32,000 nucleotides of DNA from Chloroflexota bacterium (GCA_965221905.1 OZ244922.1:3039504-3071503); one strand, 5' to 3'. Shown: positions 3,170-25,471, counted from the first letter of the stretch. The notes: generated by a model not told the origin, from the letters alone. A program made the numbers and translations.

Positions 3170-3265
3170 GGCAGTTGCACACAAGCTACTTTCATTCAAG
3201 TAGTCGCCGCCCTTAGTCATGATTCAGCACAAAGATTAAACGCCGCTCCCTATTGATCGATATCT

Positions 3266-4254
3266 ATGCCTTACGTAGACGATGCTCTTCTCTTGCCCCT
3301 CGGCACCAGCCTCCTGCTCTTGCTTTGGCTCTCTTTCTGCGGCGCCGTCCTCGTCCGCTTCTGCTGCTCTATTCGCAGTTGGACGCTGCTGCCTCCCCTC
3401 GGCCTCGCTGCCGGTTGCGCTATCTTCCTCGTCTGCGCCAATCTCCTCGGCAAGGTCGGCGCTCTACCTGAGGGTTCCGGAATCGCCGTCCTTGTCGGCA
3501 CAGTCGGCACTGTGCCTCTGGCCTTCGGCGGCGCCTTCCTCTTGCTCAGCGCCCTCGGCATCTTCGCCTCTTTCCAATTACGGCCACACTCCTGGCAGCT
3601 ACCCTCCCGTCGAACGCTCCTCGCAGTCTGCGGCTATTCCCTCTTAGCTCTCGTGCTCGCCTACGTCTGTCTCGCCATTCGCAACCAGTCCTACTTCTAT
3701 GACTTCCCTACCCACTTGGCATTCGCGACTACCATCGCACGCGACAACCTGCCCGTGCGCAACCCCTACTCTCCGGTCTCCCCCTCCGGCTACCACTACG
3801 GCGCCGCTCTCCTCGTCGCTGCCCTCTCCCGCGCCGCCGGCCTGCCCGCTGTTACCGGTTATCAACTCCTCGCTGCTTTGCAAGGCGCAGCACTTCTCCT
3901 GCTCGTCTTCGCCTTGGGCCGCGAGGCCGGTAAACTCTTCCTCTGGGGCCTTGCCTGCCTCCTCGCCGCTCTCTCCATGGGAAGCTTGGTGCTCTGGCGG
4001 CCTTTCGCCGCGTTACCTCCTGCTCTCTCTCATTTGCTTGGCGGCAATCTGTCGCTCGATGCCCTCCTCCAGTTCCCCAGCCTCCGCCAATATATCGAAC
4101 TCGTCTATCCCATCGTCTCTTTCTCTTCCGACCTCCACTGGCTCTTGATCTATCCCCATCGACTCGCGGCCTTCTTCACTGTCGCCGCGTTGGCCGTGTT
4201 GCTTGTCGGACCAGGGCGCCGACGTTGGGGCCACACCACTATGGCCTTATCTAT
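3266..4254 (+). repeat. 989-bp direct repeat, copy 1 (100% identical to 6633-7621)
   Basis: Checked base by base over 3266-3650 and 4201-4254. In between, identity is supported by identical translations in the coding frame and in five overlapping alternative-frame ORFs on both strands. Confidence 0.9.
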
Positions 4255-6424
4255 TACCATCGCTGCTGCCATCGCCCTCTATGATGAAACTATGCTCCCC
4301 CTTGCTCTCATGGCCCTCGCTTGGCCTCTGCTCTCCCTCCGCCGTAATCCCCAACGCCTCGCCATTTGGTCGGGCGGCATCATCGCCACTATCGGCCTCA
4401 TTGCACTTCAAGGCGGCTCTGTCACCGACGCGCTATTTGGCACTTCCGGCTCGCGACCCCCTTTTTCCCTTTACTCCCCTGCCGAATTCTCCCGCTCGCT
4501 TATCTTTACCAAAGCGTTGCCTGAGGGGTGGCTCTGGATACTCCCTCCCCTACCCCTCGCCGCCTCCGCCCTCATCTTCATCTGGAAACGCTGGTGGCTG
4601 GGGCTCATGCTCTGCGGCTTCGGCTTCGCAGGCTACCTCGGCTTTCATATTGTGGATTACCAGGGAGCCATCGGTTCTGGCCAATGGGCCCGTGTCGTGA
4701 ACCTCTCATTTCTCACACTCGCTTTGGTAACGCCCTTGGCGGTTGCCCGTCTTCTCCGTGATGCACAGCCGTGGCGCACAGCGCTTGTCGCCTTCTTACT
4801 GATGCCCGTTGCATTGCCTACGCTCTTGCAGCCAGTGGCAAGCGTCTTATCCGAGCTCCCCCGTGAAATTTCACTCCACGATCCAGATCTCCCGGGCCTA
4901 GCTTATACTCCCCAAATCACCGACCCTTACGTACACCAAGAGCTTGTCAACTTTCACGATGTCTATCGGGACGTCGGGCAGTTGCTTCCCGATGACAGCG
5001 TCGTGCTGACGCAGCATCCCGTTTCATTCGCAATTGCCACGGGCCTCACCACAGCCTATGCCCCGACCTCCGGTCTCACACTGTTTCCTTCTCACCGCTA
5101 CATTCCGGATCCGGCGTTCTACGATGCTTTCTGGCGTCTTGATCCCGCTGCCTGGCGCGCCTTGGGCGCGACTGCCGTCCTCTATCACCACAATACCTAC
5201 CACTCCCTCCCACTAGCAGCTCGCAGACTGGTCGAGGACAGTGGCTGGTTCATTACGCACTACGATGAGAGCGACTTCTTGCTTCTAGCGCCTAACGAAG
5301 CCTTCTTCCGCTATGGGAATGCGTCTCCCAGTACCTTCGCCTCGTTCCGCGCGGCCCTTACTCCCAGGGATACCGTATTTCTTTCGCCTAATCTGCCTTA
5401 CGGCGTCGGACAAGCACTGGTGCATCTCCTGAGCGACCATCCTGTTGCGGGCCTAGGGCCCGACCTCAGTTCACACCACTGGATGGAGCTCATGCGGCCC
5501 CCAGGGCTTGATGCGGCGTCCGCCGTGTGGCACGCGCGCAGCCATATGGATACGCGGCTTGCCGGCGTCTTTCCAGAGGCTGCTCTTTGGGAGTGGCGGG
5601 CGCCAAGCGAAAGCGCGGGCGTGTACCCCAATGCTCCGATTCCCGCATTCGCTCCCCTAGAGCTTTCCGCCGGCCAGTCATTGGCCTTGCAAGCTAATCA
5701 CAGTAGACTTGCCTTGGACGACGCGCCCGGCATGGCCACATCCGTTCACTTCCGCTCACTCTCTCTCGTGCTTGCCGGGCACCCTGGAAGCGTGGTCCAG
5801 ATCTGTGCGCCCGCAGGATGTGCGCAGCGCGACCTGGGCGGCGCCACATGGACGTACAGCCTGCCCTTGATCGCAGAAAACACCCAATTCACGCTCTCGG
5901 TACTGCACGGCCGGGCCTTTGTCGCCGGCACGCTTGGCTTCTCCGACCGGCTCGCCGCGGTCCGCACTACCGGCGTTGTCATTCGACCCCGGCAAACTGA
6001 CAATGCCATTAAAGTAGACGTGAGTTACTTCAACTTTCAAGGATGGACACTTGGCAACGGCATAGCGTGGCAACTTGTGCGCGTTGACTCTGAGCAGGAG
6101 CGTCGGGTGCTTTCCCGCCCCAGCCAACTCATCATCTTTGGTGAGCTCGGCGACGTAGTCTACACGCTTGGTCCTGACGGGAGCCACGCTGAGCACAATT
6201 TCACTGAATCGCCGCCGCTGTTCGAGCAGGCTCGGGCACTGACCGATGGCGAGTACCGCCTCTTCCTCAGCTTCTTCATCGATCAATTTAAGGCCGCCGA
6301 TTGGATACCTGCCGCTCACTTTCGCGTGCAAGAGGGTACCATAGTATCGTTCACTCCACTGCCCCAGATTGCACGCCTGAGTTTTGGCGCGGAACACACG
6401 GAAACTGTTGTCTTGGAAGAATGA
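3266..6424 (+). CDS. Large polytopic membrane protein, paralog A (about 530-aa multi-TM N-terminal half plus about 520-aa non-membrane C-terminal half); possible GT-C-fold / YYY-type (DUF2298-like) protein
   Basis: 1052-aa uninterrupted ORF with at least 12 hydrophobic segments in residues 1-530. Loop motif YFYDFPTHLAFATTIARDNLPVRNPYSPVSPSGYHYG (nt 3692-3802). No SD sequence upstream. Confidence 0.85.
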   Translation: MPYVDDALLLPLGTSLLLLLWLSFCGAVLVRFCCSIRSWTLLPPLGLAAGCAIFLVCANLLGKVGALPEGSGIAVLVGTVGTVPLAFGGAFLLLSALGIFASFQLRPHSWQLPSRRTLLAVCGYSLLALVLAYVCLAIRNQSYFYDFPTHLAFATTIARDNLPVRNPYSPVSPSGYHYGAALLVAALSRAAGLPAVTGYQLLAALQGAALLLLVFALGREAGKLFLWGLACLLAALSMGSLVLWRPFAALPPALSHLLGGNLSLDALLQFPSLRQYIELVYPIVSFSSDLHWLLIYPHRLAAFFTVAALAVLLVGPGRRRWGHTTMALSITIAAAIALYDETMLPLALMALAWPLLSLRRNPQRLAIWSGGIIATIGLIALQGGSVTDALFGTSGSRPPFSLYSPAEFSRSLIFTKALPEGWLWILPPLPLAASALIFIWKRWWLGLMLCGFGFAGYLGFHIVDYQGAIGSGQWARVVNLSFLTLALVTPLAVARLLRDAQPWRTALVAFLLMPVALPTLLQPVASVLSELPREISLHDPDLPGLAYTPQITDPYVHQELVNFHDVYRDVGQLLPDDSVVLTQHPVSFAIATGLTTAYAPTSGLTLFPSHRYIPDPAFYDAFWRLDPAAWRALGATAVLYHHNTYHSLPLAARRLVEDSGWFITHYDESDFLLLAPNEAFFRYGNASPSTFASFRAALTPRDTVFLSPNLPYGVGQALVHLLSDHPVAGLGPDLSSHHWMELMRPPGLDAASAVWHARSHMDTRLAGVFPEAALWEWRAPSESAGVYPNAPIPAFAPLELSAGQSLALQANHSRLALDDAPGMATSVHFRSLSLVLAGHPGSVVQICAPAGCAQRDLGGATWTYSLPLIAENTQFTLSVLHGRAFVAGTLGFSDRLAAVRTTGVVIRPRQTDNAIKVDVSYFNFQGWTLGNGIAWQLVRVDSEQERRVLSRPSQLIIFGELGDVVYTLGPDGSHAEHNFTESPPLFEQARALTDGEYRLFLSFFIDQFKAADWIPAAHFRVQEGTIVSFTPLPQIARLSFGAEHTETVVLEE
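4526..4806 (+). repeat. 281-bp second near-identical block, copy 1 (matches 7893-8173)
   Basis: Same 3367-bp offset as block 1. The only mismatch I saw is 4581 T versus 7948 C (Ile/Thr). Much more diverged sequence flanks it on both sides. Confidence 0.8.
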
Positions 6425-6596
6425 CGGAGGCCGGTCAGCCGCTTCCCTTTGGCATGGGCTTGCGTTCTAACGTTTTCCATTGCTGTCTAGTGCTGTCTAG
6501 CCGACCGGTCGAATTCGTAGAACAGCGAAAAATTCTAATACCGAAAATTTCGAGAATTCCCTCGCCTTGTGAAAGACTGCGAAACTTAGAACCAAG

Positions 6597-6614
6597 GGCG
6601 GCCTTTCGGCCGCC
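6597..6614 (+). other. GC-only hairpin 13 nt upstream of paralog B
   Basis: ggcggcc (6597-6603) - tttc - ggccgcc (6608-6614). There is no U-tract, so it is not a canonical terminator. Confidence 0.4.
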
Positions 6615-6626
6615 TACTGCAAAGTA

Positions 6627-9600
6627 ATGCCCATGCCTTACGTAGACGATGCTCTTCTCTTGCCCCTCGGCACCAGCCTCCTGCTCTTGCTTTGGCTCTC
6701 TTTCTGCGGCGCCGTCCTCGTCCGCTTCTGCTGCTCTATTCGCAGTTGGACGCTGCTGCCTCCCCTCGGCCTCGCTGCCGGTTGCGCTATCTTCCTCGTC
6801 TGCGCCAATCTCCTCGGCAAGGTCGGCGCTCTACCTGAGGGTTCCGGAATCGCCGTCCTTGTCGGCACAGTCGGCACTGTGCCTCTGGCCTTCGGCGGCG
6901 CCTTCCTCTTGCTCAGCGCCCTCGGCATCTTCGCCTCTTTCCAATTACGGCCACACTCCTGGCAGCTACCCTCCCGTCGAACGCTCCTCGCAGTCTGCGG
7001 CTATTCCCTCTTAGCTCTCGTGCTCGCCTACGTCTGTCTCGCCATTCGCAACCAGTCCTACTTCTATGACTTCCCTACCCACTTGGCATTCGCGACTACC
7101 ATCGCACGCGACAACCTGCCCGTGCGCAACCCCTACTCTCCGGTCTCCCCCTCCGGCTACCACTACGGCGCCGCTCTCCTCGTCGCTGCCCTCTCCCGCG
7201 CCGCCGGCCTGCCCGCTGTTACCGGTTATCAACTCCTCGCTGCTTTGCAAGGCGCAGCACTTCTCCTGCTCGTCTTCGCCTTGGGCCGCGAGGCCGGTAA
7301 ACTCTTCCTCTGGGGCCTTGCCTGCCTCCTCGCCGCTCTCTCCATGGGAAGCTTGGTGCTCTGGCGGCCTTTCGCCGCGTTACCTCCTGCTCTCTCTCAT
7401 TTGCTTGGCGGCAATCTGTCGCTCGATGCCCTCCTCCAGTTCCCCAGCCTCCGCCAATATATCGAACTCGTCTATCCCATCGTCTCTTTCTCTTCCGACC
7501 TCCACTGGCTCTTGATCTATCCCCATCGACTCGCGGCCTTCTTCACTGTCGCCGCGTTGGCCGTGTTGCTTGTCGGACCAGGGCGCCGACGTTGGGGCCA
7601 CACCACTATGGCCTTATCTATAGCCATCGCCGCTGCCATCGCTCTCTACGATGAAACTATGCTCCCCCTTGCTCTCATGGCCCTCGCTTGGCCTCTGCTC
7701 TCCCTCCGCCGTAATCCCCAACGCCTCGCCATTTGGCTCGGCGGCGCCCTGGCCGCTATCGGCCTCATTGCACTTCAAGGCGGCTCTGTCTCATACGCAC
7801 TGTTTGGCAATGCCGGCACCGGCTCCCTCTTATCTCTGCGATCTGTGCCGGACGCCGCCCGCTCTGTCACCTTGACCAGAGTGCTCCCGGAAGGGTGGCT
7901 CTGGATACTCCCTCCCCTACCCCTCGCCGCCTCCGCCCTCATCTTCACCTGGAAACGCTGGTGGCTGGGGCTCATGCTCTGCGGCTTCGGCTTCGCAGGC
8001 TACCTCGGCTTTCATATTGTGGATTACCAGGGAGCCATCGGTTCTGGCCAATGGGCCCGTGTCGTGAACCTCTCATTTCTCACACTCGCTTTGGTAACGC
8101 CCTTGGCGGTTGCCCGTCTTCTCCGTGATGCACAGCCGTGGCGCACAGCGCTTGTCGCCTTCTTACTGATGCCTGTATTCCTACCCACGCTTACCCAACC
8201 AGCGGCCAGCATCATCTCCGATCTCCGTAAGGAAGTTACGTTTCACCACCCGGAGTCTCCAGGGCTGGTTTACACCCCCCAGATCACCGATCCATGGGTC
8301 ACGCGCCGGTTATTCGAGAATCGAGATGTCTACAGGGATATCGCCCAAGTGCTGCCCGATGACAGCGTCGTGCTTACTCAACATCCCGTCTCATTCGTCA
8401 TCGCAACAGGCCTACCTGCCGCCTATGGATCTATCGACGGCATTACCCTATACGCTTCCCACATCTACTTTCCCGGCCCAGCCTTCTACGATGCTTTCTG
8501 GCGACTTGATCCCGCAGCGTGGAGCTCATTAGGCGCTACTGCGGTTCTCTATCACCAAAGAATGTACTACTCACTGCCACAATCGGCGCGGGAACTCTTA
8601 GAAACCGATGGCTGGTTTTTACGCCGCAACGACGACCGCCAACTTCTGCTCTTCACTCCTACCGAGGCATTCCTCCAGTATGGCCCAACCCCTGCGAACA
8701 CTCTATCCGCATTGATGACGTTACTACCGTCTACAGATACGCTCTATCTGTCGACTGACTTACCCTTTGGGATGGGACAAGCACTTGTGCGGAAACTTAA
8801 GGATCGCCCAACGGTTGGCCTCGGGCCAGAAAATAGAGTACACCAGTGGATAACGGTAAATAGACCTGTATGGTTAACAGAAGCTGAGGCGACATGGCAC
8901 GTGCGCAAGGATTCGGAGGTGCGGCTATCCGGAACACTCCCTGAGGCCGCGTTGTGGCATTGGCGCGCGCCAAGCGAAAGTGTAGGGGTCTACCCAAACG
9001 ACACGATACCGGCCTTTTCTCCCAGACTGCTTGCGGCCGGCCAGTCCTTACGCTTGCACGCAAGCCGCCAAGACCTTGTTTTGGAAGATGGGCCCACCGT
9101 CACCTCGCCTGTGCAGTTCCGCTCACTCTCTCTCGTACTTGCCGGGCATCCTGGTAGCGTTGTCCAAGTCTGTGGCCCGACAGGATGTGCGCAACGAGAC
9201 TTGGGTGGTGGGACGTGGGTCATTGGGCTGCCACTGAATGCTGATCTTTCGCAGTTCACGCTCTCCGCAGTACAAGGCGAGGCTTTCATCGCTGGTACGC
9301 TCGGCTTCAGTGAACACCTCACTGCGGTTCGCGCACCCGGTGTCGTCCTTCGATCTCGGCAAACTGGCAACACTATTGAAGTGGATGCCAATTACTTTAA
9401 TCGCCAAGGGTGGACCCAAGGGGATGGCGTAGCGTGGCACCTTGTCAAAGCAAAAACCAGTAAGGGCGAGGGCGGACTGTGGTGGCCCAGCCAGCTCATC
9501 ATCCATGGTGAGCGCGGTGACGTTCGCCTTACCCTGGACCCGTCCGGCACATTCGCCGAATATAACTTCACGACTCCCCCGTCGCTAAATCAAGTCGAAG

Positions 9601-9785
9601 CGTTGACTGATGCAGAATATCAGCTATACCTCGCCTTCACCATTGATCCCTTTGGGGTTGTAGATCGGGTACCTGCAGCGCGGTTTCTTGTTAGTGAGGG
9701 TTCTATCGTAGCGTTCACCCCGCTACCGCAAATAGCGCTCCTGAGCTATGGTACGGAACACGTCGAGCCATTTATTTTAGAGTAG
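6627..9785 (+). CDS. Large polytopic membrane protein, paralog B of 3266-6424
   Basis: 1052-aa ORF. The homologous start is the second ATG at 6633, where nucleotide identity with paralog A begins. Same TM architecture as A; the C-terminal half is clearly homologous but much more diverged, by eye. Confidence 0.85.
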   Translation: MPMPYVDDALLLPLGTSLLLLLWLSFCGAVLVRFCCSIRSWTLLPPLGLAAGCAIFLVCANLLGKVGALPEGSGIAVLVGTVGTVPLAFGGAFLLLSALGIFASFQLRPHSWQLPSRRTLLAVCGYSLLALVLAYVCLAIRNQSYFYDFPTHLAFATTIARDNLPVRNPYSPVSPSGYHYGAALLVAALSRAAGLPAVTGYQLLAALQGAALLLLVFALGREAGKLFLWGLACLLAALSMGSLVLWRPFAALPPALSHLLGGNLSLDALLQFPSLRQYIELVYPIVSFSSDLHWLLIYPHRLAAFFTVAALAVLLVGPGRRRWGHTTMALSIAIAAAIALYDETMLPLALMALAWPLLSLRRNPQRLAIWLGGALAAIGLIALQGGSVSYALFGNAGTGSLLSLRSVPDAARSVTLTRVLPEGWLWILPPLPLAASALIFTWKRWWLGLMLCGFGFAGYLGFHIVDYQGAIGSGQWARVVNLSFLTLALVTPLAVARLLRDAQPWRTALVAFLLMPVFLPTLTQPAASIISDLRKEVTFHHPESPGLVYTPQITDPWVTRRLFENRDVYRDIAQVLPDDSVVLTQHPVSFVIATGLPAAYGSIDGITLYASHIYFPGPAFYDAFWRLDPAAWSSLGATAVLYHQRMYYSLPQSARELLETDGWFLRRNDDRQLLLFTPTEAFLQYGPTPANTLSALMTLLPSTDTLYLSTDLPFGMGQALVRKLKDRPTVGLGPENRVHQWITVNRPVWLTEAEATWHVRKDSEVRLSGTLPEAALWHWRAPSESVGVYPNDTIPAFSPRLLAAGQSLRLHASRQDLVLEDGPTVTSPVQFRSLSLVLAGHPGSVVQVCGPTGCAQRDLGGGTWVIGLPLNADLSQFTLSAVQGEAFIAGTLGFSEHLTAVRAPGVVLRSRQTGNTIEVDANYFNRQGWTQGDGVAWHLVKAKTSKGEGGLWWPSQLIIHGERGDVRLTLDPSGTFAEYNFTTPPSLNQVEALTDAEYQLYLAFTIDPFGVVDRVPAARFLVSEGSIVAFTPLPQIALLSYGTEHVEPFILE
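6633..7621 (+). repeat. 989-bp direct repeat, copy 2
   Basis: Identical to 3266-4254 at a 3367-bp offset. Confidence 0.9.
7893..8173 (+). repeat. 281-bp near-identical block, copy 2
   Basis: Matches 4526-4806 with one observed mismatch. Confidence 0.8.
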
Positions 9786-10030
9786 TAACATTTTTGAACG
9801 GCAAGTGCCACGCAAGTAAGCGCCCGAGCTCTTCACTGGTGCCCATCGCAATTGCAACGAAGGAGCGAAGCAAAGGCATACCCAGGTTCGCCCAATGCCC
9901 AGATTTTACAACTGCATTCGCGCCAGATACCTAGCTCAATTGGGAGTGGTGGACGGCACTGACCGACTGTGTGCGCGGACAGGCGTGCATCCACGCCGTG
10001 GCCGAGACTAATACGGTAAAATCCATGTGT

Positions 10031-10060
10031 TTGAGCGGCCTTCGCTCGCCGGATTAAGAT
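10031..10060 (+). promoter_or_regulatory. Possible sigma70-type promoter for the CinA-like operon
   Basis: TTGAGC (10031-10036) - 18 nt - TAAGAT (10055-10060), 28 nt before the GTG at 10088. Pattern match only. Confidence 0.3.
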
Positions 10061-10087
10061 ACCCTCATCTGGGAGTAAGATCACTCT

Positions 10088-10582
10088 GTGACACCCTCAC
10101 AACTCATGGGCCTGCTCCACCGGCACATCGCGGCGGGCCTTGCCTCCCGGAATGAGACACTCGCGTGCGTTGAAATCGGAAGCGGCGGGCAGGTCTCCTC
10201 CTTCCTTACGTCAGAGCCGGGAAGTTCAGCCTTCTTCGCCGGCGCACTGATACTTACTGCGGATGCTTCCGTTTGGCCCCGGTCAATCATGGGCCGCTGC
10301 GGCTGGCGACATGACCCGTTGGAGAGTCTCGATCGCTTGTGCGGGCTTGCTGCAATTGCACAAAGTGAGTTTGGCGCGGATTGGGGACTTGCGGTGGTTT
10401 GCAAGGCTGCTGCAGCCCGGCACCCCGCGCATTTCGCGCTGCGTTCCCCAAGTGGCAATGCAACCCTTGAGACCGCGTTACTTTCGGAGGAAGTGCTGCA
10501 ATTTGGCGGGGCACAACTGGTACATTACGTCCTACAGCACGTGGCAGAGCGCCTAACAGACTACCGTGAGGATCCACCATGA
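10088..10582 (+). CDS. CinA C-terminal-domain (PncC-like) family protein, divergent
   Basis: ETLACVEIGSGGQVSSFLTSEPGSSAFFAGALIL corresponds to the CinA/PncC signature TLATAESCTGG....LT..PGSS..F.GG.V.Y, but SCTGG is replaced by IGSGG. GTG start; an ATG at 10106 is an alternative. Confidence 0.7.
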   Translation: MTPSQLMGLLHRHIAAGLASRNETLACVEIGSGGQVSSFLTSEPGSSAFFAGALILTADASVWPRSIMGRCGWRHDPLESLDRLCGLAAIAQSEFGADWGLAVVCKAAAARHPAHFALRSPSGNATLETALLSEEVLQFGGAQLVHYVLQHVAERLTDYREDPP

Positions 10583-10851
10583 TGCGCGCCCCCCATGATC
10601 GCGCCGCACTCCTACTGCAAGTCGAAACCTACGACCTACAGGGAGTCGATCACTACAAACTAATGCTCGTCTGGCGAGAGGACCGTCACACCATTCACGA
10701 AGTGCATCTTCCTGCGGATTCGGTCTACGCCGACCCCCAAGCCGGACACCGCATAGCAATCACGTACTTAATGGATACGCCCCTGCGTGTCAAACCCCTT
10801 TCAGATCCTCCAACCGACGTTTCCCCTAACAACTCGGATGCGCAAGTATAG
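10579..10851 (+). CDS. Hypothetical protein (90 aa), translationally coupled to the CinA-like gene
   Basis: Its ATG overlaps the upstream TGA in an ATGA arrangement (10579-10582). No recognisable family. Confidence 0.45.
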   Translation: MMRAPHDRAALLLQVETYDLQGVDHYKLMLVWREDRHTIHEVHLPADSVYADPQAGHRIAITYLMDTPLRVKPLSDPPTDVSPNNSDAQV

Positions 10852-10948
10852 GCGGGTTCGGTACTATAGCAAGAGAGTTTTAGTATTTGCTGGAAGGCGC
10901 AGGCAGTGCTCTAGACTCTGGCAACCCGCCGCTAACCAAGGAGCAAGT

Positions 10949-12079
10949 ATGCCGACAATAGAGAACGTAGAAGTTTTCTCATTTACCCTCCCTTTCAAGG
11001 GACTGTTCCGCACGTCGCGGGGGACCGTGGGCAGTGCCGCAACCGGACGTCCCATCGTGTTGACGAAACTGACCGCCAGTGACGGCACCGTCGGGTGGGG
11101 TGAAGGTTCGCCTTCCCACACGTGGTCGCCGGAGACTCGCGAATCGGTGGTGAGTGTACTCAATGATCACTTCGTTCCCGCTGTGATCGGCAAGCCGCTC
11201 GCCGATCTCGATGGCCTTCATCAAGCCATGAATGGCGCGATCGCACCCCTCTGGGGCCTGAGCATGCCAATTGCCCGCGCCGCGATTGATGTTGCGGCCC
11301 ACGATGCCCTGGCGCGGCACTACGGCGCGCCCCTCTCCGACCTGCTCGCGCACCGCCGAGCGGACCGCATTCGCCTGAGCTGGACCGTGACCGGAAGCAC
11401 CCCGGCTGAAGTGGAAGAAAGTCTGCGCGAGGCTGAAGAGCGCGGCTATCGAAGCTGCAATGTCAAGGTAGGTGGCTCCATGGAATGGGACCTTCAACTC
11501 TGTGCCTTGGTGCGGAGCGCCTTTCCCGAAGGCTTTCTTTGGGCCGACGCCAATGGCGGCTTTCCGCCTCATGAGGCGCGCCAGCGGATGCATGCGCTCG
11601 TAGACACAGGCGTTGCACTGCTCGAACAGCCCGTTGCGCCGGACCGTCCCGACGTTGCAGCGCGCATTACGGCAGAATCGCCAATTCCCGTGGCGCTGGA
11701 TGAGTCCATTTCCGGGCCGGTACCGTTGCTCACCATGATCAAGCAAGAAGCGCTCACAGCCTACACGTTCAAGGTCACGCGCACCGGCGGACTTTGGCCG
11801 TCCCGAATCTGTGCGTCGCTTGCGGACGCCGCCGGGCTGATGCTGGTGTGCAGCGGCCTTACCGAGTGCAGCGTGGCGTTCGCCGCCAGCGTCCATCTTG
11901 CCGCGGCATGGGGCATAGTGCACCCGTGCGCGCTAAACGGCCCACAGTTTCTCACCGACGACGTGGCAGCCAAGACCCTCCCCCGTGAGGGCGACGCGGT
12001 GCTCGTCACCGATGATCCGGGACTTGGTATCGAAGTAGACGAGGACAAAGTCCGGCATTTTGCCGCGCAGGAGGCTTGA
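10949..12079 (+). CDS. Enolase-superfamily enzyme, mandelate racemase / muconate-lactonizing subgroup (dipeptide-epimerase-like)
   Basis: ATG at 10949 with AAGGAG 6 nt upstream. N-terminal capping domain IENVEVFSFTLPF. KxK motif (CNVKVGG), metal ligands in WADANGG / LEQP / ALDES, and a second Lys in FKVTRTGG. The ORF-track extension back to 10787 is non-homologous. Confidence 0.9.
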   Translation: MPTIENVEVFSFTLPFKGLFRTSRGTVGSAATGRPIVLTKLTASDGTVGWGEGSPSHTWSPETRESVVSVLNDHFVPAVIGKPLADLDGLHQAMNGAIAPLWGLSMPIARAAIDVAAHDALARHYGAPLSDLLAHRRADRIRLSWTVTGSTPAEVEESLREAEERGYRSCNVKVGGSMEWDLQLCALVRSAFPEGFLWADANGGFPPHEARQRMHALVDTGVALLEQPVAPDRPDVAARITAESPIPVALDESISGPVPLLTMIKQEALTAYTFKVTRTGGLWPSRICASLADAAGLMLVCSGLTECSVAFAASVHLAAAWGIVHPCALNGPQFLTDDVAAKTLPREGDAVLVTDDPGLGIEVDEDKVRHFAAQEA

Positions 12080-12084
12080 CCGAC

Positions 12085-13095
12085 ATGACTGGGCAAGACC
12101 CTATTCGTACTATTCACGTTGGTGTCGGCCGCCGCGGCCGCTGGCCGCTGGAAGTGCTTACCGCCGATCCGCGATTTCGGCCCGTGGCCCTAGTCGACGT
12201 TTCCCCCGATTTGCTCGCGGAGGCGCAGGCGCTTACGGGACTCGATGAGTCAGTTTCGTTTTCGCATCTGGAAATAGCACTCGCAACCGTGCAGGCCGAC
12301 GCCGTCATCATCTGTACACCCACGGCTTTCCACGCCCCTTTGGCGAGGCTGGCGTTTGATGCGGGCAAGCACGTGCTGGTTGAAAAAGGCATGACGACCA
12401 ATTGGCAAGATGCAGTGGGTCTCGTAGCCGAGGCGGATCGCGCGGGCGTAAAGTTCTGCGTCTCGCAGAATTACCGCTATCGGCCTGAGGTGCTTACCCT
12501 GAAATCCGCTATCGAAAGCGGCGACCACGGTACGCCGCATCTCATCGACCTGGTTCATCACCGCTTCCGGCCCACGCCCCGCACGCTGGACTATCCCTTT
12601 GCCATGGTTTGGGACATGAGCGTGCACCATCTGGATAACCTGGTCTTCTGCTTTGGGCCGGTTGCTGAAGCCACGGCAAGGAGTTTCACTGCGCCCTGGT
12701 CGCAGTACTCCCACGACGCGGGCATCTCTGCGGTGCTGCACTTTGCAAGCGGGCCCGTTGCCACGTACGCCATGACTCACATCGCCAGCTACAACGACTA
12801 TCGCTTTGTGGTGCAGAGCGCCGAAGGCGTGTTGGCCTGGGACGGTGCCGACTGGCAATGGCAGGAAACACCTGCGTTGGATTTCGGCAAGGCGCAGCCG
12901 CCCCGGGCGGTACCCCACGCGCCGGCGCCACATCGAAGCGAGCAGGGCGTTATCGACGACCTCTACCGGTACATCGTGGATGGCATCGAGCCCGGCATCA
13001 GCGGGCGCAATAACCTGGAAATTCTCCGCGCCTGCGAGATGCTCTGCCGCTCAAGCCAAGAACAGGGCACCGTGCACAGAGATGAGGTAAGTTAG
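12085..13095 (+). CDS. Gfo/Idh/MocA-family NAD(P)-dependent oxidoreductase
   Basis: IHVGVGRRGRWPLEVL Rossmann start, ADAVIICTPTAFHAPLA and AGKHVLVEKGM (EKP-like motif). AGGAGG lies 10 nt upstream of the ATG at 12085. A TTG at 12076 overlaps the upstream stop. Confidence 0.9.
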   Translation: MTGQDPIRTIHVGVGRRGRWPLEVLTADPRFRPVALVDVSPDLLAEAQALTGLDESVSFSHLEIALATVQADAVIICTPTAFHAPLARLAFDAGKHVLVEKGMTTNWQDAVGLVAEADRAGVKFCVSQNYRYRPEVLTLKSAIESGDHGTPHLIDLVHHRFRPTPRTLDYPFAMVWDMSVHHLDNLVFCFGPVAEATARSFTAPWSQYSHDAGISAVLHFASGPVATYAMTHIASYNDYRFVVQSAEGVLAWDGADWQWQETPALDFGKAQPPRAVPHAPAPHRSEQGVIDDLYRYIVDGIEPGISGRNNLEILRACEMLCRSSQEQGTVHRDEVS

Positions 13096-13222
13096 CGATT
13101 TGCAGAGGGGCGCTACCGCGTTGGGTTGAGAGGTAGACCACACTGCTTAGCACAATGACTTAGAATCAAATACAATACGCCGGTCGTAATCGTAGAAAAG
13201 CAATCGACGGTATCGATTTGTA

Positions 13223-17793: not shown

Positions 17794-18540
17794 ATGCCCA
17801 GGCAAGAGAGCATCTCTGTCTTTTTTCCCGCCTACAACGATGAGCACACGATTGGTACCCTCGTAGAGCAGTCCATTTCCGTGATTGAACGGCTGGGATT
17901 CACTGACTATGAGGTCATCGCCATCAATGACGGCAGCGAAGACGGCACAGCGGCAGTGCTGGCGCGGTTGGAAAGCGATCTACCGCAATTTCGCGTGATT
18001 ACGCACCCAAAGAATCGCGGCTATGGCGGGGCGCTCCGCAGCGGCTTCAGCGCAGCCTGTAAAGACTTGGTCTTCTACACTGACGGCGACGCCCAGTATG
18101 ACGTGGAAGAGCTACCATTGCTCTTGGAAAAACTGGCGGATGCCGTTGACGTTGTGAACGGCTACAAAATTTCACGGAAAGATTTCTGGGTTCGAGATAT
18201 TGTTGGAAAGCTGTATCGCAGCACTATGCGTTTGTTCTTCAAGACACCGATTCAAGACATTGACTGTGATTTCCGCCTCATCCGGCGTCGGGCATTGGAC
18301 TCAATTCACCTTACTATGAATAGTGGCGCCATTTGCTTAGAGCTCGTCGCAGAGCTAGCTGCTAGTGGCTCCCGCTTCGCCGAGGTAGGCGTGACACATC
18401 TTCCCCGTCAATATGGCCGCTCACAGTTCTTTCGTCCGCGCCACATCATTCAGACGTTGGCGGATGATTTTCGCTTTTGGTTTCGCTTGCGCCAGGCGCG
18501 CCGATCCTACATCGCGCGGGAAGAGCAAGATACCCCCTAG
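17794..18540 (+). CDS. Family-2 glycosyltransferase, polyprenyl-phosphate sugar synthase type (DPM1/GtrB/ArnC-like)
   Basis: ISVFFPAYNDE, AINDGSEDGT, NRGYGGALRSG and YTDGDAQYD (DxD) fit the GT-A fold of the Dpm1/GtrB subgroup. No C-terminal TM domain. Confidence 0.9.
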   Translation: MPRQESISVFFPAYNDEHTIGTLVEQSISVIERLGFTDYEVIAINDGSEDGTAAVLARLESDLPQFRVITHPKNRGYGGALRSGFSAACKDLVFYTDGDAQYDVEELPLLLEKLADAVDVVNGYKISRKDFWVRDIVGKLYRSTMRLFFKTPIQDIDCDFRLIRRRALDSIHLTMNSGAICLELVAELAASGSRFAEVGVTHLPRQYGRSQFFRPRHIIQTLADDFRFWFRLRQARRSYIAREEQDTP

Positions 18541-18862
18541 GCACGCTTTCAACCTCGCCTGTGCTCTCCAATTGCGGCTAAGACTCTCTCCCAGTTCGCC
18601 CTAGAACCATGCTGCCCTAAGCCCAATCTAAACTGAAGGCAACCTGTCAAGAGACATGGACTGCGATCGGGGATTTTGGCAATCCTTGCCACGTATTTCC
18701 CAAACCAGCGAGAGTTTCCAGGCCAAATTCTAGTACATACGAAGTCGTTCGCAGCCGAGCGCCTTGGCTGAGAATACCACCACTGGCCGACTCCTTCTAA
18801 GCCAGGCACCGTCTACATAGCGTGTTTGCTACAGTGCGCGATTGCCTGCTACTATCGCTTGT

Positions 18863-21139
18863 ATGAGGCGCTTTCACTCTACTCATGCGACACCGCTCGC
18901 AGGATTCCATCCCTCCCTGGAAGACGCACCGAAGCACACACTGCGGCTGCTTGGCGTAATATTCCTCTTCTTTTTCTTGGTGTACGTCTTGACTGCAGGC
19001 GGTCATGAGTATAGCCCTGACGGACGCTTTGCGTACAACATGGGGCAAAGTCTCATATTGGACCCCGATCACGCCTACTTAAGGCAAGAATATCGCGGTC
19101 TGGCGTGGTGGGGAATTGGGTTACCCTTGCTCTTCCAACCTACCTTGGTCTTGGGCGGCATGATCAGCCCCTTGCTGCCGCAGAAGGACACTTTTGAGCA
19201 CGAGGGGCGCACGTATGTGCTCGGAGACTATCCTGTACTCGCATTTAGAGGCACTCCCAATAGGGTGGAGACGTTCTACATTCCTATTAAGGACGTGCGC
19301 GCCAGAGGTCTTGTTATTTTTTCCTACCTGGCGTCGTCCTTAGAGATCAGTGAAGGTACACGAGTCGCCACAGTCACGTTAGATACCGTTCCGACAGGCA
19401 GATTCTTTGGAGAGATGATAGCTGGGCGAGACACGGCGGAGTGGGCATACGACCGCCCGGACGTGCGCGGTAAGGTGGCACACGGCAAGGCAAGTGCCGC
19501 GGCGAGCCGTATTGGGATCCCAAGTTCCAGCATTTACGTTTCCGAACTGCTCTTTCCGCAGAGCGTGACCGTAAAGAGCGTGACCATCCAGTATCTGGCT
19601 AACGAAGGCAACTTGCACATTTCATCCCTCAACCTCATCGATGCCGAAACTGACCAGCCGATAATGATCGGCGCCCGAGGTAGGGTCTGGTCCGAGCGGG
19701 AAAACAGCGGCTTCTTCACGCGCTTGTTTGCTCTATTCACCAACGCCTGGGTAACGGCCCTGAACGCCGTACTGTTATTTCTCATTGCGCGTCGACTTGG
19801 GTATCACGGCCACGTTGCACTTTCCTTGACATTCCTATTTGGTTTTGCAACGCTTGCGTGGCCGTACGCAAAATACGACTTCGCTGAACCAGGCGTTACG
19901 CTAGCGCTTCTTGGCACAGTCTACTTCCTGCTGCGCGGTCTCCAAGACCAGCAGTTAGGCTGGCTGCTTGTTGGTGGATTTACAATACTAGGCGGCATCG
20001 CCATAAAATACGTAACGGCCATGAATCTTGCTATACTGGCAGCTATCCCGGCACTTGTCACTTTGCAAAGCGCCAACCGGTCTCTGCGAACCCTTGCCCG
20101 GGCCCTCGCACGCACCATCGTGTTTTTGGCCCCAGCAGGCGTACTCGGTTCGGCAGCACTTGCCGTACTCGTATTCGTTCTTAACATACGGCCTCCTGTG
20201 CTGACGAATTTCGCTGACAGGTTTGCTGCCTGGCTTGACCTCCCAATCTGGATCGGCCTCTACGGCAACCTGCTGAGTCCGGGAAAGAGCGTCTTCCTCT
20301 ATGCGCCGCCCCTGATCCTGGCCCTATTCGGCAGCCTACCCTTTATTTCACGGCACAAGTGGTGGGCGCTGCCCTTTATTGGAATACCGCTGCTTTATTT
20401 GCTGGTCTATAGCGCCAAGGGTGTCTGGTACGGAGGCAGTAGCTGGGGGCCGCGCTATCTGGTTCCGGCGGTACCCCTCTTCCTCGTCATGGCCTCTCCT
20501 ATAATCGAGAAAGCCATCTTCGACAATGGCATCAGGGAGCTTCGGGCAACTCTAGTGCTAGGTGCTACCGGAATCGGCATCCAGATTCTTGCAATTGCCA
20601 ATCACTTCGACTGGTACTTCGGCCTGTTGCGCTCCCAGATCCTCCCGCAAGTACCGGAAAGCGGTGCTTTTCTCGCCGGTCGAGTGGGTCAAGCCTATTT
20701 TGCCCACCCTACGAACAACCCTTGGGATCAAGAGAATGTCCTATATCTTTTCGCGGCTCCGTTTTCACCCATCTTTGCCCATGTCTGGATGCTGGCAGCA
20801 GACTTCGCAAAACTCTTCTTGCCGACACGACCCGACCTCCTCCTCGGTATACTCGGTCACCCGCCCTGGTCTATTCTCGGCGTTGCCATATGGCCGCAGA
20901 ATCCAGAATACCTCCTGGGCCTTGACTTTTGGTCTATGATTCTCTGGCGGGAATATTCCAATCACATGTTCTTTCTGGCGATCGTGCTGATCGTTGTCTT
21001 GGCCGTAGAAGCGGCAATCCTCTATTGCTGGTCCTGGCTGTGCCGGAAATTTGAACTGCCCCTGCGTCTCTATTGGGGCGGGATTGCCGGCTTGGCGGCG
21101 TTTTTCATTCTCTTCGACATGGCTCACATCCTGCAGTAG
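18863..21139 (+). CDS. Polytopic membrane protein, probable GT-C-fold (ArnT/PMT_2-like) glycosyltransferase with a loop insertion of about 175 aa
   Basis: About 13 TM segments. The first-loop acidic motif GGHEYSPDGRFAYNMGQSL (18998-19054) is analogous to the D/E-x-x-Y/H loop of ArnT/PMT enzymes. A beta-rich insertion is encoded at about 19184-19712. GPRYLVP motif. The ORF opens at a TTG at 18842; the first ATG is at 18863. Confidence 0.7.
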   Translation: MRRFHSTHATPLAGFHPSLEDAPKHTLRLLGVIFLFFFLVYVLTAGGHEYSPDGRFAYNMGQSLILDPDHAYLRQEYRGLAWWGIGLPLLFQPTLVLGGMISPLLPQKDTFEHEGRTYVLGDYPVLAFRGTPNRVETFYIPIKDVRARGLVIFSYLASSLEISEGTRVATVTLDTVPTGRFFGEMIAGRDTAEWAYDRPDVRGKVAHGKASAAASRIGIPSSSIYVSELLFPQSVTVKSVTIQYLANEGNLHISSLNLIDAETDQPIMIGARGRVWSERENSGFFTRLFALFTNAWVTALNAVLLFLIARRLGYHGHVALSLTFLFGFATLAWPYAKYDFAEPGVTLALLGTVYFLLRGLQDQQLGWLLVGGFTILGGIAIKYVTAMNLAILAAIPALVTLQSANRSLRTLARALARTIVFLAPAGVLGSAALAVLVFVLNIRPPVLTNFADRFAAWLDLPIWIGLYGNLLSPGKSVFLYAPPLILALFGSLPFISRHKWWALPFIGIPLLYLLVYSAKGVWYGGSSWGPRYLVPAVPLFLVMASPIIEKAIFDNGIRELRATLVLGATGIGIQILAIANHFDWYFGLLRSQILPQVPESGAFLAGRVGQAYFAHPTNNPWDQENVLYLFAAPFSPIFAHVWMLAADFAKLFLPTRPDLLLGILGHPPWSILGVAIWPQNPEYLLGLDFWSMILWREYSNHMFFLAIVLIVVLAVEAAILYCWSWLCRKFELPLRLYWGGIAGLAAFFILFDMAHILQ

Positions 21140-22309: not shown

Positions 22310-25300
22310 CTACCTCCCCGCATCACTCATTCCTACAGTTCGCGACTGCGTTCGGGTAGTCGCATAAATGAGAGCGCACAACGCTGCAGACAACCAGAAC
22401 CAACTTGCCAAGTCCGGCAGGAAATAGTAATTATCCAACAGCCCATGGCTCACTGCGGCGAGTTGGCTCCCAGCGAGACCAACGCCCATGGCGCGAGCCG
22501 CTCCTTCGTCGCTGCTATAGACTATGCGGTGTGTGAACAGGAAAAATCGCACGAGATAACCGACTATAAAAACAAGACCCACTATTCCAAGGCGTAGCCA
22601 AAAGTCGAGGAAGAGGTTATGGGGGTGCGAGAGGTTTGGTTCACGCCAGGCTGCCGGGTTCAAGTACTGCGCATGGACATAGAGGAAGTTGTCCAGTCCG
22701 ACGCCCGTAATTGGGTAATCTGCGATCATTCGGAGTGAAGACTGCCCTTGAATTAGCCGCGTATGCGTGGTCGTGCCCGGCTCCAGACTCAGCAGCGAGC
22801 GCACGCGCTCCGGGCCGAAGGAGACGCCTCCAGCTACCAGCAGCACTGTCACCAGCACAACGCCCCCCACGATACGAACCCGTTGTCTGCCAGCCGGAAT
22901 GAGCACCCAAATGATGAATAGCAGCAATACGAACCCGGCTATCCAGCCTGCGCGCGAAAAGCTGCCCAGTAGCGTGAGCGCCAGGATACCTGCAATCGGC
23001 CACGCCACCCGGGAGGGCCACAGCTTGAATATGCCTGCAGCGACCACAAAGGGCAGTGCGCGCTCCACTATCATTGCCAGATGATTTGGCGAGGGATAGA
23101 AACCCGTAAGCCGCATCACTCCTTCCGCCCTTACCACGGAGCTGGGAGCGAGGATCGGCTCTGCGAGTGCTGCGACGGCCGCAATTACGGCCCCCGCCAC
23201 AAATGCCTGTATCAACCACCAGGCCTGTTGGCGATTTTCCAAAAGCCAGCTCGCCACCAGAAACAAGAGAACCGGCACGATGATCGTCTGCCGTAGCTCA
23301 CGCAGGCTAAAGACCGCGTAATGCGAAAACAGAAGGGAAACCGCCCCGATCCCGATCAGACCGATTGCCCACCATGAGAACTCGCGCCGCGGGAACGGTA
23401 AGCGCTGTTGAATGTACGCGTGCGCGATGAGCGATCCCGTAAGCAGCACCGCCAAAGTCTCGCTAACCGGCAGTGTCAGACGGCCAGCGGCGGGTATCAG
23501 CACGGTAAAGGGCAGTGTTAGCGCTAGCACGAACAGCAGCGCACGAGGCCAAACGAGCGCACCGAGGGCGAGCAATGCCACAACCAGAATCTGTGGCCCC
23601 GTTCCCGGTGCCATCCAGAGCACCACGGACATCGCGAGGAGCAACGCAAACCTAGCCCGTTCAAATCGCCATACGCCGCTCGCGGTCCATCCCACGGCCC
23701 TCTGGAAAATCCGGTGCGCCCAGCGCCGCTGCCGCAGCCATCCGGTCAGGACCCAGCCCAACGCAGCAAAGAAACCCACGTAGAGTCCGCCCAGAGTGAC
23801 ATAGGGCCACAGCGGTCGTTCGCGAACCACTACCACCGCATCGATGTCTATGCCGGAGGCGCTAGACTGCGGGCTGTGCTCGCCTTTCACCACAACTTCG
23901 ACGTCGTGCACGCGGTCCGGGAGTCGATCTGCCAGCAACACCTCTTCCTGCCATCGGTCCTCGGGAGCATAGAGATCAAGAATGGCCTGTCCACCCGCGT
24001 CTTTGTCCAACCGGTGTGCCAGCGACTGTGTGCCGTTGATGCGAACAAGCGCGAAGCCTTTGTCCGGCCCTTTGTTCACCACCAGCGAAACCGCAGTACC
24101 CCGAAAGTGAAAGCGCAGGCGGGCGCCCGCCAGCGGACTGCCCCGCGCCTGACCCAACGAATAGCGTTCGTGCTCGATGTCAATCCATTCGCTCTCCCAA
24201 TTGAGCGCCGGATGCGTTTCCTGATGGTAGCCGGGACCCAGGACGGGTGGCGCGCGCATCAACTCCTGCATTGCCGTAAGCACCGGCCGCGGCGCAAAGT
24301 TCGCATCCACAATGCCGAAGTACTGTGTGGGGTCATCGGGGTCGGCTTGGGCCCAATAGAAGTGCCAGAGGTTAATCATCGGCATCCACGGCCACTCAGC
24401 CTGTGCGCGCTGCATCCCCTCTACGGTATAGCGCGCCTGTGTCTCCTCCGACACATTGCCCCACGGCGAAGGCTTGCCCTGCCAGTCCGGCGGCAGCGCA
24501 ACCCACCCGTACTCACCGGCCCAGACGGGTTTTGCCGCGTCGCCATTTCTCACCATAACTTCACGAAAAAGAACCGCCCGCGAGAGATTGGTGCGGTGCG
24601 GTGCGACGTAACGGTCGTCCGGGGCATGCCACAACCCATAGGCTGCGCTACTCGCCACGTCGAAGTAGGGTGCACCGCCATGCTCATACATCCCCTGCAG
24701 GAAGATAAGTTCGCTGAGGTTCTTTGGGCCGGTCTCAATGGTAGGCGCGAGTACGGCGGCGACAATAATCGCCTCCGGATTCGCCTCCCGAATCCGCTGC
24801 GAAGCAACTTTCAGCATCTCAACGTATGCCGCCGGATCCGGGTTGTGCGGCCACCATTCTCCATAGAGATTGGGCTCGTTCCAGACCTGAAAGATCTGCA
24901 CGTCCCCGCGATACCGCTGCGCGAACGCATACGCGAAGTCGCCAAAGTCCTCGAGTCGCTCCGGCGGCCCTTGGTTACGCCCATCATCCGGCGGTTGGCG
25001 ATTAGGATACGCCCAGGGCGGCGGCCGTTCGAGGCGGGCGATGATGGTTAGGTTGTGTTGCTTGGCCAGTGCTACCAGCCGGTCGTACTTCTTCCAACTG
25101 CTTTCCTGCAGAAGGTCGTTCCAGTACCTGCCCTTCAGCGGGCGCTCGATGTCTTCCCAGGGAAAGACCTGCCGAATGTAGGTAAAGCCAGCTTCCTCCA
25201 AGAGCGCCATGCCGCGCTCCACTCGTTCCCAGTCCGGCTCCTGGTCGAAGCGCGTGTTGATGCCGTAGCGGTATACGGCGGCATTCTGGATCGGGTAAAT

Positions 25301-25471
25301 CAAATCGCGTCCGTAGGCAACACCGGTTTCAAACCAAAAGCGGAAACCCACCAGTGCAAGCGTCGCCCCGACAAGCAAGATGAGGTAGCCAATTAAAAAG
25401 TAGAATCGCTTCATATTTGGATAGTCTGCATCTGAATGCCCGCGCTCACGCGAGGCAACGGCACGCGGCAT
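22310..25471 (-). CDS. Fusion protein: signal-anchor + clan GH-A glycoside hydrolase + beta-sandwich module + O-antigen ligase/polymerase (Wzy_C-type) membrane domain
   Basis: Residues 21-45 form a TM anchor. A (beta/alpha)8-type GH carries VWNEPN (Glu codon at 24875-24877) and AGEYGW (Glu codon at 24512-24514). A module of about 140 aa (about 23822-24244) follows. Residues 555-1053 have at least 10 TM segments with SFSRAGW and GVGLDNF...HPHNLFLDFWLRLGIVG, which are typical of the WaaL/Wzy family. An alternative start is the ATG at 25414 (MKRFYF...). Confidence 0.85.
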   Translation of the reverse strand: MPRAVASRERGHSDADYPNMKRFYFLIGYLILLVGATLALVGFRFWFETGVAYGRDLIYPIQNAAVYRYGINTRFDQEPDWERVERGMALLEEAGFTYIRQVFPWEDIERPLKGRYWNDLLQESSWKKYDRLVALAKQHNLTIIARLERPPPWAYPNRQPPDDGRNQGPPERLEDFGDFAYAFAQRYRGDVQIFQVWNEPNLYGEWWPHNPDPAAYVEMLKVASQRIREANPEAIIVAAVLAPTIETGPKNLSELIFLQGMYEHGGAPYFDVASSAAYGLWHAPDDRYVAPHRTNLSRAVLFREVMVRNGDAAKPVWAGEYGWVALPPDWQGKPSPWGNVSEETQARYTVEGMQRAQAEWPWMPMINLWHFYWAQADPDDPTQYFGIVDANFAPRPVLTAMQELMRAPPVLGPGYHQETHPALNWESEWIDIEHERYSLGQARGSPLAGARLRFHFRGTAVSLVVNKGPDKGFALVRINGTQSLAHRLDKDAGGQAILDLYAPEDRWQEEVLLADRLPDRVHDVEVVVKGEHSPQSSASGIDIDAVVVVRERPLWPYVTLGGLYVGFFAALGWVLTGWLRQRRWAHRIFQRAVGWTASGVWRFERARFALLLAMSVVLWMAPGTGPQILVVALLALGALVWPRALLFVLALTLPFTVLIPAAGRLTLPVSETLAVLLTGSLIAHAYIQQRLPFPRREFSWWAIGLIGIGAVSLLFSHYAVFSLRELRQTIIVPVLLFLVASWLLENRQQAWWLIQAFVAGAVIAAVAALAEPILAPSSVVRAEGVMRLTGFYPSPNHLAMIVERALPFVVAAGIFKLWPSRVAWPIAGILALTLLGSFSRAGWIAGFVLLLFIIWVLIPAGRQRVRIVGGVVLVTVLLVAGGVSFGPERVRSLLSLEPGTTTHTRLIQGQSSLRMIADYPITGVGLDNFLYVHAQYLNPAAWREPNLSHPHNLFLDFWLRLGIVGLVFIVGYLVRFFLFTHRIVYSSDEGAARAMGVGLAGSQLAAVSHGLLDNYYFLPDLASWFWLSAALCALIYATTRTQSRTVGMSDAGR

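Follow-up and report, generated by a model that had tools for sequence, protein, structure and literature searches.

The 32,000-nucleotide stretch of a Chloroflexota bacterium genome analysed here (GCA_965221905.1, OZ244922.1:3039504-3071503; hereafter, the window) carries two adjacent paralogous genes on the + strand, gene A (3266..6424) and its tandem paralogue gene B (6633..9785), which code for large membrane proteins. The open reading frame (ORF) of gene A encodes 1052 aa, and in its AlphaFold2 (AF2) model ~14 transmembrane (TM) helices (aa 1-530) are followed by predicted extracytoplasmic alpha/beta and beta-sandwich domains (aa 554-1052). Because the ATG at 6627 of gene B, from which its product would also be 1052 aa long, is not conserved among relatives and is replaced there by AAT or AAC, gene B likely starts at ATG 6633 and encodes 1050 aa. 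The first-pass annotation of this DNA, made by a model from the sequence, had assigned 1052 aa to both genes, which holds for gene A.

Concerted 5' halves and independent 3' halves

The identity between A and B begins exactly at the ATG: position 3265 differs and the DNA upstream is unrelated. From there on, segment 3266..4254 (conversion tract 1, + strand, coding for TM1 to ~TM8) matches 6633-7621 at an offset of 3367 with 0 mismatches over 989 bp. It is followed by an unconverted island (4255..4525, + strand) with 54 mismatches versus 7622-7892, few of them up to 4388 and densely packed in 4424-4525, where the alleles of an extracytoplasmic loop (aa 387-420) are encoded. Conversion tract 2 (4526..4806, + strand, 281 bp), coding for TM11 to TM14, has a single mismatch (at 4581) versus 7893-8173. 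From 4807 onward the identity is 52-79% per 100-bp stretch; this position-specific 3' half of gene A (4807..6424, + strand), which codes for the extracytoplasmic domains, is ~64% identical at the nucleotide level to 8174-9785, and the longest exact match between the two 3' halves is 20 bp. Overall, A and B share 96.4% identity in alignment nt 1-1542 and 64.1% in the remainder.

The coordinates, identity blocks, peptides and C-terminal conserved islands that had been reported in the first-pass annotation are all present in the sequence. The offset of 3367, described there as constant, is so up to 6205, where a 3-nt indel (6206-6208) changes it to 3364. The accompanying argument, that uniform drift cannot yield such a mosaic, is well founded: in a Sawyer-type runs test the longest concordant run of polymorphic sites between A and B was 281, versus a mean of 10.4 and a maximum of 20 in 2000 permutations, and the same test was significant in all five of the other two-copy genomes tested. 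The C-terminal islands were examined as possible micro-conversion tracts and rejected on account of their synonymous differences (among codons for the same residue, 7/15 and 17/28 are identical); their conservation is at the protein level. A search of the window for repeats found none beyond the A/B pair.

Close homologues of the two products number ~40 among 5.8 billion proteins. All five genome records with an organism name are metagenome-assembled genomes (MAGs) of Chloroflexota, and the product of gene B is identical to protein P0009, carried on a 3.52-Mb contig. Eleven further contigs (L001-L011) yielded the syntenic locus, with a shared gene order of GDP-mannose dehydratase, chorismate mutase, A, B, CinA, enolase-superfamily gene, GFO oxidoreductase, ricin lectin, DAHP synthase, CMD and EPSP synthase. 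Seven of the eleven loci (L001, L005, L006, L007, L008, L010 and L011) have two copies of the gene, L003 has three, and L002, L004 and L009 have one. The flanking genes are 92-98% identical to those of the window in a close group of genomes and ~80% identical in L002, L003 and L005. C-termini of the A type, orthologous to that of window gene A, are found in L001, L006, L007, L008, L010 and L011.

In a codon alignment of 19 gene copies, the two halves of the gene behave differently. Within genomes, the 5' kilobase is 99-100% identical between A and B in the window, L001, L006, L008 and L010; between genomes, orthologues are 91-97% identical in the same kilobase, which is comparable to the flanking genes (92-98%). 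The 3' half is 93-99% identical among the A-type copies and equally so among the B-type copies, versus 52-75% between A and B. Whether the C-terminal halves cluster by position or by species, a question raised in the first-pass annotation, was answered by neighbour-joining: copies from one genome group together in the TM core, whereas in three 3' segments they group with copies at the same position, and orthologues from the distant L003/L005 clade are found among both the A-type and the B-type 3' halves. The exceptions are L8_A and L9_s, which shift to the B clade for nt 1951-2250.

Four-taxon site patterns give the same division. Alignment nt 1-1530 contain 43-81 sites that group the copies 'by genome', and the number of sites that group them 'by position' is 0 versus L006, L008 and L010, 11 versus L007 and 27 versus L001, every one of these 27 lying inside the loop (nt 1171-1260). 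From nt 1531 to the end there are ~310-485 'by position' sites versus 0-6 'by genome' sites. Between the window and L006, the ratio of 'by genome' to 'by position' sites is 43/0 in nt 1-1530 and 0/485 in the rest.

These patterns, as read from the alignment, show the 5' 1.5 kb, which codes for the membrane domain, to have been overwritten repeatedly between the copies inside each genome; the first-pass annotation had proposed ongoing gene conversion that homogenises the TM core, and the grouping of the 5' sites by genome agrees with it. The same comparison shows the 3' halves to have evolved independently since the duplication, under purifying selection. The duplication is old, because dS between the 3' halves of A and B is 1.4-1.8, that is, saturated, and because orthologues of both types occur in the distant clade; its age is thus shown, by these comparisons, to exceed that of the split of the window's clade from the clade with ~80% identical flanking genes. 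On the same evidence, the identity of the 5' halves is secondary and was gained separately in each lineage.

Tract borders and products of crossover

The borders of the homogenised tracts differ from genome to genome. In alignment coordinates, the tracts cover nt 1-990 and 1261-1542 in the window, nt 1-1050 in L001, nt 451-1350 in both L006 and L010, and nt 151-450 only in L007, where identity elsewhere in the TM half is 61-77%. L008 has tracts at nt 1-150 and 301-1050, plus a 3' tract at 1801-2250. In the distant clade (L002/L003/L005), concerted evolution is seen in the first ~450 nt only.

When alleles are clustered, nt 1-450 and 1261-1542 of window gene A fall with the type that gene B has in L006, L001 and L010, which points to conversion from B to A later than the divergence from the L006 lineage; for tract 2, this direction is the most parsimonious one. 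The remaining segment of the 5' tract (nt 451-990) is placed by the allele comparison as homogenised already in the ancestor that the window genome shares with L006. At the ATG, no more than 5 nt separate the end of the 5' tract from the point where homology ceases.

The single gene of L004 combines the upstream flank of A and an A-type 5' end, including the first codons, with a B-type 3' half and the downstream flank of B. Judged by this arrangement, it is the deletion product expected of a crossover inside the homogenised region. L009 likewise has a single gene, of the A type with a B-type patch. One-copy hybrids and three-copy arrays are shown by these gene structures to be products of unequal crossover in the 5' region. 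Two of these loci have further peculiarities. The L004 hybrid (10001-13152) is frameshifted by a 1-nt indel near alignment column 2057, and it is either a pseudogene or the result of a long-read homopolymer error. In L003 (3399-13111), as in L005 (6703-13108), a gene with a B-type C-terminus stands upstream of an A-type one, the reverse of the window order, and the extra copy of L003, first in its array, is deeply branching; the L003/L005 array was probably rearranged via unequal crossover.

Length variation was also seen in the membrane half and among the relatives. A 16-residue segment in the TM2-TM3 region (GKVGALPEGSGIAVLV; 3449-3496 in gene A, aa 62-77, and 6816-6863 in gene B) is an indel polymorphism, present in both window copies; L008 and L010 lack it in gene A, and the L002/L003/L005 clade lacks it in every copy. 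Gene A of the closest relative (L006, 10001-13189) encodes 1063 aa, 11 residues more than that of the window, and proteins P0193, P0196 and P0200 have the same length.

More distant members of the family, ~26% identical, form three head-to-tail genes of 931-935 aa with stop/start overlaps in L012 (2402-10796) and also in L013; L012 has a fourth copy on the opposite strand, from 17352. The triple array of L012 has a uniform nucleotide identity of 45-73%, as expected of plain drift, and we therefore rejected the idea that the mosaic is a property of the whole family: by this comparison it is specific to the window's clade, whereas tandem multiplicity seems to be a recurring family trait.

Predicted fold and genomic neighbourhood

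Searches of Pfam and NCBIfam gave nothing above threshold for A, B, 10 distant relatives and 44 alignment members, and a sequence profile search of the PDB gave no match. An exhaustive HMMER scan found 708 family representatives (clusters at 50% identity) with E <=0.001, of which 123 had E <=1e-30; two word-indexed profile searches added fragments and one weak match only and did not deepen the alignment. The start of the DUF2298 (PF10060) profile aligned with aa 79-243 of copy B alone, with an E-value of 0.0056 and a score of 16.1 bits, below the cut-off of 27.8 bits. No Pfam family was matched by the 10 more distant members at E 0.01, and DUF2298 was not matched at E 1 by the 44 members of alignment A2. 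DUF2298 corresponds to the 'Chlor_Arch_YYY' membrane proteins (TIGR03662) of Chloroflexi and Archaea. Like its members, A and B are large polytopic proteins from the same phylum, and their family-invariant Y-H-Y-G motif (aa 176-179) recalls the YYYxG motif from which that family takes its name; they fall below the curated threshold, however, and hence are not members.

A first AF2 model, built from 23 mostly close sequences, was poor (pLDDT, the predicted local distance difference test score, of 58) and was superseded by one built from a 44-sequence alignment with distant representatives (pLDDT 85, predicted template modelling score 0.86). The final model has ~14 TM helices up to residue 530, followed by a ~520-residue external part made of an alpha/beta domain and beta-sandwiches. 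In a Foldseek search of the PDB with this model, the best 12 matches were all GT-C enzymes (DPY19, STT3A/B, yeast STT3, AftA, PglB and EmbB), 10 of the 12 at a probability of 1.00 and E-values of 2e-5 to 4e-3; AftB and ArnT came next after these 12. Two EmbB entries, 6x0o (E 0.024) and 7bwr (E 0.069), were matched with probabilities of 0.89 and 0.69. The first, poorer model gave the same kind of fold matches.

Loops rich in K/R alternate with acidic loops along the membrane domain, and because of this alternation the C-terminal domains and the variable loop are predicted to lie outside the cell, as are D146, H150 and Y176-H177-Y178-G179. Across the 44-sequence alignment, conservation of D146 is at least 90%, and H150 does not vary in the 23 sequences of alignment A1. 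Both residues directly follow a TM helix and precede a short helix (aa 147-158); the loop that holds them is predicted to be on the outer side.

Going by the model, A and B are probable GT-C-fold glycosyltransferases of an Emb-like layout that are filed in no curated family. They resemble the mycobacterial EmbC, EmbA and EmbB proteins, GT-C enzymes of the tandem embCAB genes, in their length (~1050-1100 aa), in the side-by-side arrangement of the paralogues, and in the combination of an N-terminal multi-helix membrane domain with a large extracytoplasmic C-terminus rich in beta-sandwiches. Unlike Emb, they come from a Chloroflexota bacterium and have no detectable sequence similarity to the Emb proteins (Pfam, NCBIfam, PDB profile), and their fold is closer to DPY19, STT3/PglB and AftA than to Emb. 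Partial gene conversion is not known to have been reported among the emb genes, although no literature search was aimed at it.

A GT2 glycosyltransferase of 248 aa (17794-18540, + strand), 8 kb downstream of the pair, is most similar to the polyprenyl-phosphate-sugar synthases ArnC, PpgS and AglJ, and the window also codes for two nucleoside diphosphate (NDP)-sugar dehydratases/epimerases and a Wzy_C protein. The 765-aa ORF that follows the GT2 gene (18842-21139, + strand) has no Pfam family and a weak match to the putative glycosyltransferases LA_3751/LA_3752. These two genes could be a donor-synthase/membrane-transferase pair; as a relative of A and B, the 765-aa ORF was rejected (hhalign probability 0.2). 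Another ORF, of 1053 aa (22310-25471, - strand), was considered as a third paralogue and proved to be an unrelated Wzy_C fusion. Its C-terminus is a Wzy_C/O-antigen-ligase membrane domain (E 1e-21), and its N-terminus is a soluble region of ~550 residues that looks by eye like a TIM-barrel glycoside hydrolase and has no Pfam match, an unusual fusion.

The intergenic spacer between A and B (6425..6632, + strand) holds a perfect GC-rich palindrome (6597-6614, GGCGGCCTTTCGGCCGCC), 18 nt 5' of the start of gene B. It is kept in L001, L006, L007, L008 and L010, in some of them with one or two changes, and is not followed by a T-tail on the + strand; it may be an A-B terminator or attenuator, or a hairpin that stabilises the mRNA. 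A scan for promoters and terminators around genes A and B was uninformative.

Alternative explanations, mechanism and significance

Taking the evidence together, we regard it as highly probable that the mosaic has arisen from an old tandem duplication followed by recurrent, homology-dependent conversion and unequal crossover that were limited to the membrane-domain half, and that the genes encode GT-C-fold enzymes of an Emb-like layout. Several observations weigh against parts of this interpretation. The directions of conversion given above are parsimony readings of alleles whose gene position has changed elsewhere among the genomes, and L011 is arranged differently at nt 1351-1500. Some segments may have come from strain-to-strain exchange and not from the neighbouring copy, for example aa 350-375, where both copies of L001 share an allele that is 17-22% off that of the window. 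All the genomes are MAGs. As for the function, fold similarity is the single line of evidence for it; the E-values of the fold matches are modest (2e-5 to 7e-2), with target-normalised template modelling scores of 0.33-0.48, and Pfam, NCBIfam and the PDB gave no sequence match at threshold. For the GT-C catalytic acidic residue, D146 is a candidate, and the immediate neighbours of the pair are genes for aromatic amino acids and sugar acids, with no glycan operon.

Of the other explanations, the one that fares best, although we still find it improbable, is a diversity-generating system in which the loop and the C-terminal domains would be exchangeable cassettes on a constant scaffold, driven apart by diversifying selection from phage, predators or shifting substrates. 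The loop (aa 387-420) does exist as a few discrete alleles that occupy differing gene positions across genomes: GSRPPFSLYSPAEFSRS in window gene A and in both copies of L006 and L010, and GSGSLLSLRSVPDAARS in gene B of the window and L001 and in gene A of L008. The predicted orientation of the loop and of the C-terminal domains is outward, 3' tracts have been exchanged in L008 and L009, and the ratio of nonsynonymous to synonymous substitution rates (dN/dS) is raised to 0.4-0.8 in the last domain of the A-type orthologues. Yet segment-wise dN/dS ranges from 0.1 to 0.8 and nowhere exceeds 1; it is 0.2-0.3 in the TM core, 0.3-0.5 between orthologues and 0.53 between A and B in the loop region, and 0.18-0.22 between A and B in the 3' half. 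As stable orthologues that group strictly by position, the C-terminal halves are, at 93-99% identity between genomes, no more diverged than the flanking housekeeping genes, so that the diversifying, phage- or immune-like selection on exposed parts envisaged in the first-pass annotation finds no support.

The machinery that such a system would bring with it was not seen either. Mutagenesis by a diversity-generating retroelement was ruled out, as the 54 mismatches of the loop region span all four bases, with adenine in copy A at 10 positions and in copy B at 8, which is no adenine bias. The window ORFs scanned include no reverse transcriptase, and scans of the window gave no invertase or integrase. 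Nor do the genes look like a silent-cassette system: there are no more than two or three copies, intact and of full length, silent cassettes are absent, and in six genomes A and B are both complete, unbroken ORFs that evolve under purifying selection. The shuffling of the loop is accounted for by the same conversion process, and no sign of a mechanism dedicated to it was found. The swapping of cassettes suggested by the first-pass annotation is partly borne out, in that discrete loop alleles change position.

Homologous recombination between strains, importing foreign alleles, is a very improbable main source of the mosaic. Orthologues are 78-79% identical in alignment nt 1051-1125 versus 92-98% for the flanks, and several allele classes per segment circulate among the genomes, both as expected of such exchange. 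However, import from another strain cannot give one genome two neighbouring genes that match each other exactly and are both distinct from either copy in other genomes. Exchange between strains may add raw material to the conversion process, without explaining the mosaic.

We assign a slighter probability still to an assembly or polishing artefact, in which, in a long-read MAG, one copy would have been assembled or polished with reads that belong to the other. Each of the two window proteins is recorded from one contig, of 3.52 Mb, and from nowhere else, and the relatives are MAGs as well, some on contigs of low coverage (2x for L011). Against this, seven other two-copy loci, assembled independently from several samples, have tracts with differing borders; both window copies share 43-81 substitutions versus both copies of each relative; the blocks of identity stop sharply at segments that are 20-40% diverged, unlike the effect of cross-mapped reads; the unconverted TM half of L007 is too diverged (61-77% identity) for cross-mapping; and L004 is a physical hybrid with matching flanks.

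Finally, we give almost no credence to a recent duplication with very fast divergence of the 3' halves, of which the identical blocks would be a remnant: the copies are adjacent and perfectly identical in the 5' kilobase, but the saturated dS of the 3' halves (1.4-1.8) and the variation of the 5' tracts between closely related genomes speak against it, and the position-wise orthology of each 3' type with genes in genomes with ~80% identical flanking genes refutes it.

The exchanges between the two copies would be of the RecA type, that is, homologous recombination between direct repeats, with branch migration running to the edge of homology at the ATG. In the 5' half, exchange would be self-reinforcing, because identity there is high; at the domain boundary, conversion would halt, because the 3' halves offer no exact match longer than 20 bp. 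Conversion of the 3' halves would, in addition, erase two distinct specificities, presumably of acceptor binding. The pair may thus be pictured, on the basis of the model, as two enzymes with one shared membrane core for catalysis and for binding of the lipid donor and with two differing external domains.

Concerted evolution of prokaryotic paralogues has been documented (PMC6053082), and conversion confined to one domain of tandem copies has been described in the methanogen genes mtrA-1 and mtrA-2 (PMC4632066). As in the latter case, A and B are adjacent paralogues from an old duplication, in which one domain has been kept near-identical by repeated conversion and the other has remained distinct, and the converted part is closer between paralogues than between orthologues. 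Unlike mtrA, where the arrangement is the reverse, A and B are homogenised in the membrane domain and distinct in the soluble one; the time depth of the A/B case is shown at about the genus level only; and its tracts are patchy and differ between near-identical genomes, with one, two or three copies observed.

The process is therefore already well known, and the A/B pair reveals no new mechanism; it is a clean new case in an uncharacterised family. As a bacterial example of partial gene conversion it is unusually legible, with a sharp switch from concerted to independent evolution exactly at the domain boundary and with lineage-specific tracts, a crossover hybrid and a triplication visible together among close relatives. 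Phylogenies and orthology calls for such genes need to treat each segment separately.

A further step, which we hold to be doubtful, would be that homogenisation of the membrane half is selected for and not merely tolerated, that A and B work as a pair with a co-evolving core, and that a constant core with interchangeable heads defines a new GT-C family of Chloroflexota. If so, the pair would be a heterodimer similar to EmbA/EmbB, or two enzymes that share one lipid-linked donor, with external domains that send the sugar to two different acceptors and with conversion reshuffling the loop alleles between the heads. In any event, A and B belong to a sizeable family, often tandem and with a GT-C-like fold, that has no Pfam or NCBIfam model and that may bear on the poorly known cell-envelope glycans of the Chloroflexota.

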